A DNA stretch of 63,566 nt, the filler included, from Atractiella rhizophila (taxonomy: Eukaryota), in assembly GCA_021432655.1 (NCBI GenBank). It is 3 parts of 3 records of this genome, joined end to end, with 100 filler letters (N's around TTAATTAATTAA, not from the genome) between each part and the next. Parts side by side here need not be neighbours in the genome. Positions count along the whole stretch, not along the records: positions 61,427 to 63,566 come from MU271746.1; 2 more parts are not named here. One strand, given 5' to 3'. Both the position numbers and the translations under genes were made by a program. Shown here piece after piece: positions 6,001-63,566 of this stretch (position 1 is the stretch's first letter; each line of letters starts with the position of its first letter). The notes beneath the pieces are model-generated. The model searched no databases. It worked only from the letters and a program-made list of their open reading frames with translations, and was not told the DNA's origin.

Positions 6001-8111
6001 CAGCTGAGCGACCCTCCTCCGTCCACTTCCTCCCACTCCACTCTCCTCCAAGCCCGAAAGCTCCCACAACCGCGCAACCTGCTCCTTCGAATTCCAAGCC
6101 GATCCCGATGACTGCGGCGCCCTCCCTCCTTTGTTAGGTTTGGAAGAAGAACTCGCGGTCGCACTCCCAGGTTCGCCGTCCGTGTCGAGGTCCATTATCT
6201 CCCGCTTCCTCTTCTTCGACCTCGAGCCCACAATCTTTTCGGCACGACCCATCGATTCCTCTCTCGCTCTGTTCCATGTCTGCGTGAAGACATCCCATCC
6301 ATCGTTCTCGGTCGATGTGGTGGTGGACGACGGCAGCGGTAAACCGGAGGCAGGGCCGCGCAGGAGGTCGTCGTACGCTTGGAGAGATGTAGCGGGTAGG
6401 AGATGTGCTACGGGTTGACCGTTCGTTGACGGGAAGGAGAGGAGGAGGAGGGAGGTCCACCTTCGCGCAACTGAGAGGGAGTTTGCTTCCTCCTTCTTCT
6501 CCTGCTGCTTCTCCTCTCTCGTCTCGGAATCGAGCATGTCCTCGTCCTCCCCTTCGCCGTCGGATATTGATGGGGATGGGGTGACCAAGATGTCGACGAG
6601 GGTCGGACCCCAACTCTTGACATAAGCGAGCACCATCTCCCAACACCACCGCTCGCTCTTCTCCCCACTCCGATTCCGACTCCCAAGCATCTCTCCAATC
6701 AACATAGCGACTTCCCACCCTCCTCTCCCCTCCCTGACCTCATCCAAACACTTCGCAAACACCGGTTCCCACCACCTCCCTCCCCTTCCTCCAGCCCACA
6801 AACACCTGACGAACCGCACCTCTGCGCTCCTAGCACAAGTCAACAATTCCGGCAAGGCGGCATGGAGCACGGAATCCTTGTCGGCCCACCTTCCGGGCAG
6901 CTCGTGCGAGAGACGGTGGAGGAGGGAGAGGGCGGACAGAAGGGTGAGCTTGGCGTGCTCTTTGGAATGGAGCGAGAGGGAGAACGGGGCTAGGTCGATC
7001 GTGGGTCGTTGGAGCGAGATTACGTCGTCCCCGTGAGAGGTCGTGCGTTGGAAGGCGGCTGTGGTTGGTGTGGAGCTGTAGGAAGAGAAAAGGGTTAGCG
7101 TCGTTGGATACCTTCGAGGAGCGGTGGTGGTGAGCTCTGTTTTCTTCTATGTCAGTGTCTGTTTGTAGTGTTAGAGGAGAATGGTGACGAATGATAATAC
7201 TGCATGAACGGTGGAGAAATGTAAGAGTACAATGAAAAGGAGAAGGTAACTGAAGCGCAATAGAAGAACAAGGGACACTCGAGAGACGAACCGTGAATCA
7301 GGCTACAGATCTCCTCTACAATCTTGACAGCCAATCCATCTTCAGGTCGACTAGGGATGGAAGTAGAAGGCATGAACGTGTATTCAGCCTCCAAAGCCTT
7401 GAATACGCTGACAAACATGTCCTCCAGCGCACACTTCAAGGCCTTCTTCTGCTCCTCTCCATCTCCTGCCACCACCCCTTTCCGCTGCTCCGCTCCAGAC
7501 GTATTTATAGTTGTAGAGGTAGCTGTTGTTTGCGCAGAAAGCGAACCGAGAACGAGAGGAAGGTTGATAAGGATCTTTGGGACGATCCATATGGCGAAAC
7601 ACTCCTCTTCTCCCTCTTCTCCTTCCTCTCCCATTCCCGCATCCTGGTTTGCATCCTGTACGACGTTCTGAGAGGCAGGCATAGCAGCCTCGCGAAGGAT
7701 GGACGACGAATCCTCCTCTCCGCCCCTCCGCGGTTTGAGAAGCAAGACGTCCGGCCTCCTCGTCGCCTTATACCATCCCTCGACGATCTTCAGCGCCTCC
7801 ACCTTCCTCGCCACCTCCTCCCTCGTCCTCTCATCCAAGACCAAACTTTCCCTCCTCGCATGCGCATCCGAGAACGAAAACGGGGGCCGCGACGAAGTGG
7901 AAGGGGAGGGATGGAGGAGTGCGCCGAGGTCGGAGAGGGAGAAGGTGACGACGGCCTTGAGCGCGGTGACGAGGCGGGCGAGGGGCAGGCGGTAGGATGG
8001 CGCGTTGAGGACGGAGGAGGGGATGGGACGCTCCGGGAGGGTGATCGGCACGGAGAGCGTGCGGAGGGAGTCGAGCGCTGATTCGAACAGGATCTGGGTG
8101 GAAGACTGCAT
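1..8111 (-). CDS. MEC1: ATR/Mec1 (PIKK) checkpoint kinase, multi-exon, 3' end truncated by window edge
   Basis: Kinase motifs SSLQKPRRITVVGSDG..FLCKPKDDLRKDARLMEFNSMINKLL and IRTYSVVTLNEECGLIEWV. FAT-region motifs CKAYARSLM, IYAELDEPDGMEG, HEATGRWTSAQSCWE. A chain of minus-strand exons is separated by short GT-AG introns. ATG at 8111; the low-complexity 5' exons are less certain. Confidence 0.93.
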
Positions 8112-8285
8112 GTCGCTTTATTCCATGATTCGTTGTAATTCTCTCTGGATGGCCGTGTTTCTTCTATTTCTGTAATTCTGATGTTTCTGTTTCTGTAATT
8201 CTGATGTGTCGATGTTGGTTGTGGACGCGTGTCGGCGTCGCGGCAATACTCAACATCACCAAAAAAAGTTTACACGAATCCAAAC
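8112..8285. promoter_or_regulatory. Short divergent promoter between MEC1 and RML2
   Basis: Only ~175 nt separate the head-to-head ATGs. Contains an ACGCGT (MCB-like) site near 8225 and a duplicated TTTCTGTAATTCTGATG near 8167-8207. Confidence 0.55.
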
Positions 8286-9706
8286 ATGCGACTGCCACTC
8301 TCCCTCCCGCGCATTCCCCCACCAACGACATGTCGACACGCATCCACCCTCCGCCAGCCCAACAACTCCTCCACCAGCGGCGTGCCCATCAACCGCAAGG
8401 GGCTCAGTCCGCTCGTGCGCATCACACGCATCGGAGGCGTGACCATGAAGACCTGGAAGCCCATCACGCCGTCGATCCGGCACCAGAAGCGGGTGTACAA
8501 CCCCCACCTGTGGCAGGGCGAGCCGCTGCGTGCGCTCACGATACCGAAGAAGAGCACGGGCGGGAGGAACAATACGGGAAAGAATGTGACGAGGGGGAGG
8601 GGTGGCGGTCATAAGAGACGGATCAGGTTGGTGGACTTTTTTAGGAGGGAGGGAGGCGTGCAAGAGGTCTTGAGGATCGAATATGATCCTGGGAGGACCG
8701 CTCATATTGCTTTGTTGAAACATACGGAGACAAACCAGCTCTCGTACATCCTCGCTCCCGTGGGTTTGAGGGAGGGCGACAAGGTGCAGAGCTTTAGGGA
8801 TGGACTGCCAGAGGAGTTTTTGGCGGAGGAAGAGAGGGAGAGGATGAGGTTGGAGAGGGGAGAGCAGGACACGAACCTCTCACTCGAAGCGGAGGCTGAG
8901 GAGGCAGAACTCGGTTGGATGACAACTCCAGAAACGAATGAGGAGGCTCAAGCGCTCAGGGACGCGAAAGAGCGGTTAGGGATCGACATAGACGTTCCAT
9001 CCATCGATTCCGACATCATCACGCCCCCCACCACCACAACCACCGCAACGTCCACCTCCTCAACGACCCCGATTCCCAGTCAAAAAGAAAAAGAAAAGAA
9101 GCGGAAATCGACCCGCGTCCCGCTCCTCGACCTCGGTGCGCTGCGTACGCACGCCCTGCACCCAGGGAACGTTCTCCCCCTGAAATACATTCCGCTGGGC
9201 ACGCGCATCCACGCCATCTGTCTGCACGCTCGCGGCAAGGCGTCCCTGGCGCGCTCGGCCGGAGCGTACGCTGAGACGGTCTCTGGAGGCGAGGGAGAGT
9301 ATGTGCATGTCCGGTTGAGCAGCGGTGAGGTCAGGAAGGTCAAGGGCGATTGTTGTGCTACGATTGGAGAGGTTAGTAATCCGGATCATCGGTATGAGGT
9401 TTTGGGAAAGGCGGGAAGGGCGAGGTGGATGGGGAGGAGACCTAAGGTTAGAGGTGTGGCTATGAACAGGGTCGATCATCCTCTTGGTGGTACGCATTCC
9501 TTTTGTTCTCCTTCATCCTCAGAAAGATGATGTTAATTATTTTTGTTTGGATAGGTGGAAGAGGAAAGTCGAAATCGAACAAACACCCTCAGTCTGCCAA
9601 CGGCATCCTCAAGTTCACGCGGACGAGGAAGCCAGGAGGGAAGAGGGGCAACCAGCTCGTGGTCCAGGCGAGACCGAGGGGGAAAGAGAGGAGAGGACGC
9701 AAGTAG
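8286..9706 (+). CDS. RML2: Mitochondrial large ribosomal subunit protein uL2m
   Basis: uL2 motifs [73 protein letters not shown]. Arg/Ser-rich presequence. One intron at 9490-9554. Confidence 0.95.
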
Positions 9707-10540
9707 AACTTGGTGTAGGATTGCGGTCACTAATTATTATCCCTTTTTCGGTTCGCCCATGCTGGAAAGTGAACATAATTGCACGATTCTGCGTTTATGC
9801 ACTGAAACGGAGTGTGGCACTTGTTACCTCAACGTTGAGAAGCTCGAGATGCCAATTGGTCATGAAAGACAGTTTATACCCATGCTAGCTTAATTAACTA
9901 TATATTATTACCTTTGCCTTCCATGCACCAATTCGATTTCTATTCTTCAACGGCTCATATTTTGTTTCGGTGATGAGTTGGAAGGATAACCCTCGGTCTG
10001 ATATGATTCTCATGATGCATAGCGTCAGCGGCCAGCTTACTTGCTGTTCTACCTGCTGTTCTACCTCTATCGTTTCTTGCTCCGTCAGATGATGATTCCT
10101 ATCTCATCTGCCCTATCAACTTCAAGTAGCCGACCTAGCCTTCTGATCCTGTAAGAAAGTATTGCTCACCCAACATTGTCTGATTGATTGTTTGGATGAG
10201 CTGAACTTCTACTGATAACTATGAAGAATCAGCACACGTCTGCATGTATCGAATGCAGTGGACGAATTTTGTACCACAATAGCAAGGTGAGAGGTATTTC
10301 GAATGATATACACTTAATACTCGCTCCTCGCGCATATGTACATGATTTGGCTAAGGGGCACTCTATGACTATAAAGTGCAGTCCATCCAGATCCACTCTT
10401 ATACTGATTGAATAACCTCCTGCATTGCTTTCAGAGCCGATTTAGTCATGAGCGGGACCTTTCTCCCTTCATTACTGGCAGTTTTACGTATCGGAGGCGA
10501 GCAATTCGTTCACCAAATTCTCCAGGTCGAGCGCTCCAGC

Positions 10541-61326: not shown

Positions 61327-61426
61327 NNNNNNNNNNNNNNNNNNNNNNNNNNNNNNNNNNNNNNNNNNNNTTAATTAATTAANNNNNNNNNNNNNNNNNN
61401 NNNNNNNNNNNNNNNNNNNNNNNNNN
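61327..61426. other. Assembly gap with artificial N44-TTAATTAATTAA-N44 spacer
   Basis: Same construct as 30652-30751. Confidence 0.97.
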
Positions 61427-61891
61427 GGATGCTCTAACCATTCCACAATAAAAGGTCGACACAAAACAAATTGTGTTGATGTCACCATATTGCAACAATG
61501 CATCAAGGCAGGCTGTGAATAGACGAGCATTATTGCTGCGCAAGACAGCTGACAATTGCTCTAAAATCAACTATCGACCAAACTCGACGGTGTCATGTTT
61601 ATTAGGCATAGGTACATGGAAATATGCTCCAAACTCGCCATGTTCCGTAGGTAAAAAGGTTCGAGAAGGAAGGCAGATGTTGCAGAACCGATCACATTAC
61701 TTTAAAATCGATTTTTTGTCCACGAGTTCAATCAAACTGGCAGAGACGCTCGATGTCTGCAGTAGTAAGGAGGAACCGCAAGAGATCTCACGTCTCCTCC
61801 ACCTGTTGCGTGACAAAAAGTGTCTCCCCAGTTCTCCGTTGCCAATATTCACCGGACACCCAAATCACGCCAGACCAAATAAAAAGCGCAC

Positions 61892-62072
61892 CATTAAGAA
61901 CAGCATCCAGCTCCTTAAGGTCTCCCAGGGTCTTCATTAAATTTGAAGGGAAAGCATCCACGACTGCAGCGAATCTATGTACGAGTCGAATTATGTCCGG
62001 CGCGTTTGGATCTTGAGGGAGTTGGAATTGCTCCAGCTTGCTCGCCTTGTGTTTTTGCTTGTCGCTAGTCAT
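61892..62072 (-). CDS. ING-family (Pho23/Yng-like) chromatin protein, first exon only
   Basis: FAAVVDAFPSNLMKTLGDLKELDAVLN resembles the ING N-terminal helix (LE.LP.EL.R.L..LRELD). A GT donor follows; the rest was not found before the gap. Confidence 0.5.
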
Positions 62073-62402
62073 TTTAAGTGAGTTTCTGCTGTTCCTGTGC
62101 TGCTCCTAAGCTGAACCTGATGCTCGCGGGTGGAACAAGGCTCGCTTGGTGATGTTTGTGCCCCAGATTCCGCAGCAAGCCTAAGCGAGAATTTCAACGA
62201 CAGCAATCCTTGCGTTCCTTATTGGAGGGGCGATTTTAACGCGATAAGGCTGGTTTTAAAGGGTTTACATGATACAGAAGCTTCAAAATGATCTGTACGT
62301 TTTTTCCCCTTTTTTTCTACTTTTCACATTAGGAAATGGGACAGTTTCAGCAGCATCAACAGTAGTATCAGCATCATCACCAGTGGTTCTATCCCTACCT
62401 CT

Positions 62403-63566
62403 ATGTCCACCACCGATCCAACCAACACCACCACCAATGTTCAAGATGAGCCCGCAAACGGACTGCTCCAAGATGGTGACGTTACTGACGATGGAGCGCT
62501 CGATGACGTGAGGGTCAATCCCCTCGCGTCGCGAGTGTTGGAAGTCCCTAAAAAGGGCAGGGGAGTGTTTGCTCGTCAAGCACTGAAGAAAGGAACTGTG
62601 GTGGAGCTCGCACCCGTTCTCGTCTTCTCAAAGGACGCCTATCAAAAGATGGAGGCCGATGACAATCTCCTCAAAGACTACGTCTTCAGCTGGGGAAAGA
62701 TGGGAGAGATGGCTCTTTCCCTGGGACTAGGTGCGTTCTTTCTTGTTTTGTGATGAGATGGCTGAAAAGTGATGAAGGGAGTCTGTTTAACCACGACACG
62801 TCGCCTAATGTCACCTATGAGCTGCTCAGAGAGAAGAAGGTCATTCGATACACAACATGTAAAGATGTAGACAAAGGGGAAGAATTATGTATTTTCTACG
62901 GAGCACACGTCAACTACGATCCGGCACCGCGCCAAGATGTTGATAATCCGAAGGACGCCGGCTTGCTGGACTTTGGAGATTTAGAAAGTCTCATCCAAGC
63001 GTCCAGTTCAAACTTTCGAGAACAGTCGAATGAGGTGTTCGCTCCGGGAGAGACAAATGATGATTTGGTCCTGTTCGAGTCTATGCCATTCCAAAAGATT
63101 AGCCAATTCTCAGATGTTGATCCACCATTGTCATTAGGTAGACCTTTCTCTCTTTCTCGCTTTATTGTGCTAAAGGTGGCGTAGTGGAATTCTGGGCCAT
63201 CGATATTCCGCCCCCTCTAACACCTGAAGCGTTCAAGCTCACCCGAAGTCGCCCTTTCGCCCTTTCTGCCCCGTCGAGTGTTGAAGGTGAATACGAATCG
63301 GCTTCACCATTTGCTCACTTGAAGCGAGTGCGCAAGAACGAAAGCGCCAACACAGTTTCCATCCTCCTACACCCGTGCACTACAGATCGTTCTATCGTGG
63401 AAGAAACCATCAGTGCTTCTCCTCTCGTAGGAAATTCGGTATATAAGCTAAAAGTGCCAGCTGCACCTGCTAGAAGCAAGGAACAGTGGGTGGATTGGGG
63501 AAAAATTTGGCCAATGGGCTTTCTCGATAGAAAGAGAGAAAGGGATAGGACCTTCGGTTGGAAGAG
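62403..63566 (+). CDS. SET-domain methyltransferase fused to Tad3/ADAT3-like tRNA deaminase subunit N-domain (3' end beyond window)
   Basis: SET motifs KGRGVFA, LGLGSLFNH..SPNV, GEELCIFYG. After in-frame introns 62731-62777 and 63138-63184 comes FAHLKRVRK...KVPAAPARSKEQWVDWGKIWPMGF, which matches Tad3 N-terminal motifs. No stop codon between the domains. Confidence 0.8.

Follow-up and report, generated by a model that had tools for sequence, protein, structure and literature searches.

What is a SET methyltransferase domain doing on a subunit of the tRNA-editing deaminase, and are the two parts really encoded by one gene? The question is raised by a locus at the end of a 63,566-nucleotide (nt) stretch of Atractiella rhizophila DNA (assembly GCA_021432655.1). 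This whole stretch, referred to below as the window, joins three parts of three records with 100 filler letters between each part and the next; positions 61,427 to 63,566 come from MU271746.1. A sequence-only reading of the window had proposed that one spliced frame starting at 62403 links a compact SET domain to the N-terminal domain (N-domain) of Tad3/ADAT3. The Tad2/Tad3 enzyme makes inosine-34 (I34), which eukaryotes need to decode many codons, and its regulation is poorly understood. The N-domain of Tad3 positions the tRNA, as known from the work on structures 7nz7 and 8aw3. In A34-to-I34 editing, Tad3 itself accompanies Tad2 as a non-catalytic subunit (Iyer et al. 2011, Nucleic Acids Research (NAR) 39:9473). 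As described below, the locus very probably holds the 5' two-thirds of a genuine, transcribed SET-Tad3 gene, an ortholog of a fusion that is general in Basidiomycota.

Gene structure and transcripts of the SET-Tad3 frame

The + strand was translated from the ATG at 62403 to the end of the window. With two introns removed (62731-62777 and 63138-63184; each 47 nt, GT..AG, phase 1), the frame runs through 356 codons with 0 stops. All the motifs on which the sequence-only reading was built fall in this one spliced frame (coordinates in Table 1). The first intron lies inside the SET domain. The Pfam family PF00856 matched exon 1 over profile positions 1-43 (22.7 bits) and exon 2 over positions 64-105 (30.2 bits), both above the cut-off of 22.4. 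Because the two half-matches are complementary, they represent one domain split by intron 1, and the halves fit together only when the intron is removed. Downstream, a single uninterrupted exon holds the C-terminal SET half along with the beginning of the Tad3 homology, which ties the two parts together physically however the RNA is spliced.

Both introns are supported by contigs of public runs. Twenty public runs were found for 62250-63566, and four of them were compared with the window as assembled contigs: X2 and X7, which are RNA on record; X1, RNA by guess; and X19, whose type is unrecorded. The runs were selected for holding this stretch, and absent contig cover in X1, X2 and X7 is no evidence either way. 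The joint 62730/62778 was found in one of the four runs (X19) and the joint 63137/63185 in three; runs that lack a given joint have no cover there. The contigs of X19 form an overlapping, gap-free tiling of 62345-63566. No retained intron occurs among the contig pieces listed, to which 7 further pieces, not shown, are to be added. The contigs are 95-99% identical to the window and thus come from the same strain as the source or from closely related ones. RNA editing was considered for the letters at which contigs and window differ (A>G and others) and rejected; these are read as strain differences because there is no matched DNA run.

The full-length protein is represented by a public model of 557 amino acids (aa), P0001. 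When the third exon was used as the query, P0001 was the sole match among 654 candidate longer proteins, with 98% identity over all 126 residues, and PF00856 was already assigned to it by precomputed annotation. It is identical to the spliced translation of the window at 345 of 356 residues (97%), without gaps, and has exactly the same two splice joints. Past the end of the window P0001 continues into a deaminase domain, in which His424 is followed by Ser-Phe in place of Ala-Glu, and the zinc site is kept as HEPCIYC (PCxxC). A C-terminal pseudo-catalytic deaminase with a PCxxC site had been predicted from the window; it is present, with His-x-Phe, in this 97%-identical protein.

The contigs also show a 5' intron that the sequence-only reading had missed (62295-62344, 50 nt, GT..AG), ahead of the annotated start. 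Its removal brings a further ATG, at 62269, into frame with that at 62403, which would lengthen the protein by 28 codons rich in Ser and Ile. The base at -3 of this ATG is a purine, and the same frame has a stop farther upstream, at 62257. At least one contig, that of X1, extends back to 62208, which means that the upstream ATG is present in some transcripts. The extension is absent from the public 557-aa model.

Identity and arrangement of the two parts

The SET part (residues 41-159) has its best PDB sequence match in 5h6z_A, Set7 of Schizosaccharomyces pombe (E 6e-24 for the single protein). A family profile was made from an alignment of 29 fused orthologs (alignment A1), and with this profile the E-value against the 5h6z Set7 was 7.9e-48. 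A Foldseek comparison of the P0001 model with 5h6z_A gave a template modelling (TM) score of 0.81, a root-mean-square deviation of 1.9 and 39% identity over 112 columns. In Pfam, the SET domain of P0001 scored 56.1 bits (E 5.5e-15, profile positions 1-105). The assignment to a compact, Set7-type domain, as first made from motifs, is thus borne out both by sequence and by fold. Like Set7 (5h6z/5ww0), the domain has a minimal SET fold that lacks the Cys clusters of pre-SET and post-SET regions, and the stretches GRGVFA, LGLGS.FNHD..PNV and EELCI.YG are common to the two. Set7, however, is a stand-alone chain of 169 residues, whereas here the SET domain is fused to Tad3 in one frame. The compact core is also shared with vSET of PBCV-1 (1n3j, 3kma; E 1e-12 for the single protein, 1.9e-16 for the profile, TM 0.81), but vSET is a viral stand-alone protein and less closely related than Set7.

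In SET domains, S-adenosylmethionine (SAM) binding and methyl transfer are served by three elements: a GxG stretch, an Asn-His pair and the Tyr within ELxF/IxY. In alignment A1, R53, G54, N114, H115, E145, L146 and Y150 are invariant in 29/29 fused orthologs. The S. pombe enzyme is reportedly an H3K37 methyltransferase, going by the title of a 2019 paper by Shen et al.; the PDB title reads [quoted passage not shown]. A feature search in the ESM Atlas returned small viral and bacterial SET clusters as nearest (0.93, 140-150 shared features); this lies under the reliable level and was not used.

The Tad3 part is less obvious from the window itself. Taken alone, the third exon gives weak evidence: it matched no Pfam family, and its best PDB match was 8aw3_3, "Deaminase, putative" (E 0.019), a chain that groups with named ADAT3 chains. 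The window piece is identified as Tad3 because the near-identical P0001 and the family profile match ADAT3 chains over both the N-domain and the deaminase. The C-terminal two-thirds of P0001 matched 8aw3_3 (2.8e-15), mouse ADAT3 (9hmm_B, 2.6e-13; 7nz7_B, 7.4e-13) and yeast TAD3 (7bv5_C, 1.8e-9) in the PDB sequence search. The N-domains are paired there by weak second stretches, HLKRVRK with mouse HLKRVRP and VPAAPARSKEQW..WP with VPARPPLTRSQF..WP. The family profile aligns to the ADAT3 chains without a break, starting at chain residues 24-38. For mouse ADAT3 (9hmm_B, E 4.5e-36), profile positions 242-550 align with chain residues 27-306 as a single stretch that spans the N-domain and the deaminase. 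Yeast TAD3 (7bv5_C) followed at 1.5e-26, TadA at a strength of 3.8e-16 at most, ADAT2 (3dh1_A) at 1.1e-7 and yeast TAD2 at 7e-5. On these sequence comparisons the Tad3 part is closer to ADAT3/Tad3 than to ADAT2/TadA. The top six Foldseek matches in the PDB are all ADAT3 chains, including 7nz7_B (3e-16) and yeast 7bv5_D (3.4e-16), each over ~350 columns. The public model, the family profile and the fold search all agree with the earlier assignment of the downstream segment to the Tad3/ADAT3 N-domain. Six residues of this domain, H274, L275, V320, P321, W338 and P339, are invariant in 29/29 fused orthologs.

In the deaminase, H424, E494, P495, C496 and C499 are invariant in all 29 sequences of alignment A1. 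The position equivalent to the Glu of HAE is Glu in none of them: it is Ala in 20, Val in 4, Ile in 3, Cys in 1 and Phe in 1. The Phe is residue 426 of P0001, where it is preceded by Ser (His-Ser-Phe); in the other 28 orthologs, His-Ala precedes Ala, Val, Ile or Cys. Compared with the Tad3/ADAT3 proteins of yeast (7bv5), mouse (7nz7/7nz8/9hmm) and Trypanosoma brucei (8aw3), the protein has the same N-domain and deaminase, the same HLKRVR and VP..WP motifs, the same loss of Glu from HAE and the same retention of PCxxC. It differs from them by ~210 extra N-terminal residues, made up of the SET domain and a linker, and by a disordered insert in the deaminase (residues 447-480).

An AlphaFold2 model of P0001, computed from alignment A1, has a mean predicted local distance difference test (pLDDT) score of 67.6 and a predicted TM score (pTM) of 0.47. 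The well-predicted regions are the SET domain (~41-150), the N-domain (~225-345) and the deaminase (~355-545, apart from the insert). Most of the linker, residues 151-211, has a pLDDT below 50 (151-185 and 199-211). The model gives no confident fixed arrangement of SET and Tad3, and the linker is probably a flexible tether. The Tad3 homology starts at "LPF.K.T", residues 212-218 (from 63083), where the family profile aligns mouse ADAT3 from residue 27 onward.

An acidic-Gly-Trp motif, DDGWGGL, lies ~20 residues past the SET domain in the otherwise variable linker of many fused orthologs. It is degenerate in the present protein, where the corresponding sequence is DAGLLDFGDL (P0001 residues 165-180; window 62954-62983). 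The motif may be a post-SET element or a docking site.

Distribution of the fusion and the role of the SET domain

Relatives were searched with the Tad3 part (residues 215-557) among proteins of 306-975 residues, and 47 matches were obtained, of which 31 carry PF00856. The domain is present in 30/31 named basidiomycete relatives, which cover Pucciniomycotina, Agaricomycotina (including Kwoniella) and Ustilaginomycotina. Among them are Rhodotorula, Microbotryum, Sporobolomyces, Rhodosporidiobolus, Infundibulicybe, Phanerochaete, Panus, Trametopsis, Lentinula, Pleurotus, Boletus, Kwoniella, Ustilago and Melanopsichium. Every named fungal match is a basidiomycete. The four named animal ADAT3 proteins have no SET domain. 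Eleven proteins from Logan/ENA contigs (up to 93.6 kb, seven under 3 kb) also have none; the four that were aligned begin inside the N-domain, like open reading frame (ORF) calls limited to one exon. A cluster in the structure row of the ESM Atlas has 61 members, among which Basidiomycota is the commonest phylum, with SET in 100% and dCMP_cyt_deam_1 in 87%.

All the fused proteins share the order SET, Tad3 N-domain and Glu-less deaminase as well as the invariant residues, and over its full length the present protein shares 31-41% identity with 28 named fused relatives. Its 557 aa make it shorter than most of them (462-839 aa in alignment A1). The best matches are from Microbotryomycetes (35-41% identity), and within the Tad3 part the closest named relatives share ~36-41% identity. 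The gene belongs to a distinct lineage, and by sequence this lineage probably lies within Pucciniomycotina.

Four relatives are far longer than the others: P0031 and P0032 of Pleurotus (942 and 846 aa), P0016 (839 aa) and P0035 of Kwoniella (834 aa), which has a linker of ~259 residues. These are probably merged or mis-joined gene models, since P0032 has no SET domain and unrelated sequence stands at the start.

A search for stand-alone Set7-like proteins (less than 306 aa) gave 54 candidates and 35 matches. Most are ORF fragments broken at introns and S. pombe Set7 itself was missed, so that the search says little on distribution. By eye, 13 of the 35 short SET-bearing fragments continue into the start of the Tad3 N-domain. 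Several end past "PLET/PLEL", which by eye resembles the "PPLSL" before the second intron of the present gene.

The SET-Tad3 fusion was described in basidiomycetes, with Cryptococcus CNBC2910 as an example, in the passages on the fusion by Iyer, Zhang, Rogozin & Aravind 2011 (NAR 39:9473). Two roles were proposed there: i) methylation of RNA-editing proteins; and ii) formation of an undescribed modified base. The fusion is also visible in public annotation, e.g. as [quoted passage not shown] (712 aa, PF00856) and [quoted passage not shown]. The sequence-only reading had supposed that similar fusions might already exist in basidiomycete annotations. They do, and both the architecture and the same hypotheses were already in print in the 2011 paper. 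The fusion is therefore already known, and the locus is an ordinary ortholog of a described and widely annotated protein. No functional study of it was found in the literature covered, from which most subscription journals were missing, and the sequence-only reading had named none either; of the papers that could be judged, the one from 2011 alone treats the fusion. The main text of a 2022 survey of fungal SET proteins in the Journal of Fungi (J Fungi; PMC9692433) contains neither "deaminase" nor "tRNA"; Table S1 of the survey may list fused proteins, and the survey places S. pombe SET7 in "Cluster 3, Group 19". The Set202 preprint (PMC13596356) has no mention of Tad3 or deaminase. What is added here is i) the specific assignment of the SET domain to the Set7 type; ii) the joining splice in RNA contigs; iii) the finding that SET and the start of Tad3 share a single exon; and iv) the lack of a conserved internal start for a stand-alone Tad3.

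From N- to C-terminus, the frame encodes a short low-complexity tail, a Set7-type SET domain (~41-151), a disordered linker of ~50-60 residues and an ADAT3-type N-domain, followed in the 97%-identical full-length model by a Glu-less deaminase that keeps its zinc ligands. By what is established for Tad2/Tad3, the Tad3 part would pair with a separately encoded catalytic Tad2, and its N-domain would position the tRNA for A34-to-I34 editing. The SET domain is likely to be an active SAM-dependent lysine methyltransferase, because its catalytic motifs are invariant in 29/29 orthologs that are only 31-41% identical overall. A flexible tether would hold it at high local concentration by the Tad2/Tad3-tRNA complex. 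With the SET domain kept there, lysines of Tad2, Tad3 or bound partners would be the most economical targets. It is accordingly possible, if tentative, that the target is found among the lysines of the deaminase complex or of proteins meeting it, for example in the basic C-terminal tail of Tad2.

A bolder version can be formulated, in which the tethered SET domain methylates a lysine of the editing machinery (the Tad2 tail, Tad3 or a translation factor) and thereby tunes I34 in basidiomycetes. Such a reading, which as a whole is unlikely, is allowed by the SET motifs, invariant in 29/29 orthologs, by the flexible tether and by the conservation of the fusion in three subphyla. A coupling of methylation to I34 editing, the functional idea of the sequence-only reading, is pure inference. 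If the bolder version were true, "Rosetta-stone" logic would predict that the stand-alone Set7 of fission yeast has an unrecognised non-histone target in the tRNA/translation pathway. A seemingly active methyltransferase carried throughout a phylum on a non-catalytic subunit would point to a level of control yet to be explored, or to a further function of Tad3.

The main alternative is that the SET domain keeps a Set7-like chromatin role (H3K37) independent of tRNA editing, the fusion serving co-expression or nuclear delivery. Set7 is indeed the closest solved relative by both identity and fold, and neither the disordered linker nor the pTM of 0.47 hints at a fixed contact between SET and Tad3. 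However, the occurrence of the fusion in all three subphyla, together with a linker motif conserved in many orthologs, speaks for a functional connection more than for a neutral accident, and the chromatin role is considered somewhat unlikely. It is still less probable that the SET domain has been kept without catalysis, as a module for dimerisation or for binding tRNA or protein. A precedent exists in the same protein, Tad3 itself being a pseudo-enzyme in which the Glu is absent from 29/29 sequences. A mere scaffold would, however, not be expected to keep GxG, Asn-His and the ELxIxY Tyr invariant in 29/29 orthologs.

Several points weigh against a genuine fused gene. The deaminase domain is known from P0001, beyond base 63566, and P0001 differs from the window at 11 of 356 residues. 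Its two deaminase matches in Pfam are sub-threshold (dCMP_cyt_deam_1, 21 bits against a cut-off of 25; MafB19-deam, 22.9 against 27); of the two profiles by which the sequence-only reading proposed to check the fusion, SET thus exceeds its cut-off and dCMP_cyt_deam_1 falls below it. Assembled contigs are blind to RNA starts, RNA ends and isoform ratios, and a tiling is not one molecule; an internal promoter yielding a stand-alone Tad3, or early polyadenylation yielding SET alone, may exist. In Pleurotus pulmonarius the 846-aa P0032 is without a SET domain. Finally, SET-only models are found in Serendipita indica (156 aa), Hohenbuehelia grisea (179 aa) and Plicaturopsis crispa (113 aa, partial), and these may be split gene models or real stand-alone forms.

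Taken furthest, such points would make the fusion an artefact of annotation or read-through, with a Set7-like gene and a separate TAD3 lying head to tail. Retention of intron 63138-63184 would end the frame at a TAG (63182-63184) and yield a SET-only protein; short SET-only models occur in a few named basidiomycetes, and the Met codon at 63083 (residue 212) stands right at the start of the Tad3 homology. This Met was considered as a conserved internal start and rejected: it is present in 1/29 orthologs, and 6/29 have no Met anywhere in the linker, although it may still serve as a start in the present species. Moreover, one unbroken exon encodes the C-terminal half of SET together with the beginning of the Tad3 N-domain, the in-frame joint is seen in three of the four runs with no retention among the pieces listed, and the fused order recurs in 30 of the 31 named basidiomycete proteins from three subphyla. 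An artefact is hardly credible on this evidence. Almost no weight is given to the other role proposed in the 2011 passages (Iyer et al. 2011), methylation of an amine group carried by a modified base close to the tRNA wobble position, which the tether would favour by placing SET beside the tRNA-binding N-domain, but for which no such base is known and the present analysis offers no support.

Feature coordinates and the neighbouring gene

The features of the SET-Tad3 gene and of its neighbour are collected in Table 1.

Table 1. Exons, introns and motifs at the SET-Tad3 locus, in window coordinates
Feature	Coordinates	Strand	Remarks
Divergent neighbour gene	61788..62136	-	ATG of first coding exon at 62072; X2 contig covers 62000-62136
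5' exon of transcript	62208..62294	+	X1 contig joins 62208-62294 to 62345-62458; 62208 is the contig end only
5' intron, 50 nt, GT..AG	62295..62344	+	Joint 62294->62345 in X1, X7 and X19 contigs (3/4 runs)
Exon: annotated ATG 62403, low-complexity Thr/Asp-rich tail, SET N-terminal half	62345..62730	+	Pfam SET positions 1-43; P0001 starts at the equivalent ATG
GRGVFA	62556-62573	+	SET motif in spliced frame
Intron inside SET domain, 47 nt	62731..62777	+	Begins GTGCGT; joint 62730->62778 in X19 contig, 129 letters on the shorter side
Exon, residues 110-229: SET C-terminal half, ~50-60-residue linker, start of Tad3 N-domain (~63083)	62778..63137	+	Pfam; family-profile alignment
SLFNH	62780-62794	+	SET motif in spliced frame
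EELCIFYG	62879-62902	+	SET motif in spliced frame
Intron in start of Tad3 N-domain, 47 nt	63138..63184	+	Joint 63137->63185 in X1, X2 and X19 contigs (3/4), 109-163 letters on the shorter side
Exon: Tad3/ADAT3 N-terminal domain, open at window end	63185..63566	+	98% identity to P0001 over 126 aa
HLKRVRK	63316-63336	+	Tad3 N-domain motif in spliced frame
VPAAPARSKEQWVDWGKIWPMGF (VP..KEQW..WP..F stretch)	63454-63522	+	Tad3 N-domain motif in spliced frame

The promoter region of the SET-Tad3 gene is bounded on its upstream side by the divergent neighbour. Because the known transcript ends of the two genes are at most ~72 bases apart, the arrangement suggests a shared bidirectional promoter for the SET-Tad3 gene and the - strand neighbour. 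The neighbour's peptide (61788-62072) gave only two chance-level matches in Pfam at E <= 1. To the eye it presumably recalls an ING-type N-terminus, unconfirmed by Pfam. Upstream of the neighbour gene lies an N run (~61380-61430), seen as X in the ORF translations and read as an assembly gap; N's total 226 in the window. Runs X2, X7, X9-X11 and X17 are labelled as root or soil metatranscriptomes; their word shares are small, and this weak hint that the organism or close relatives occur in such samples was not used for habitat. Elsewhere in the window, G+C is 0.55-0.57 at 6001-10000, compared with 0.44-0.52 in the remainder.

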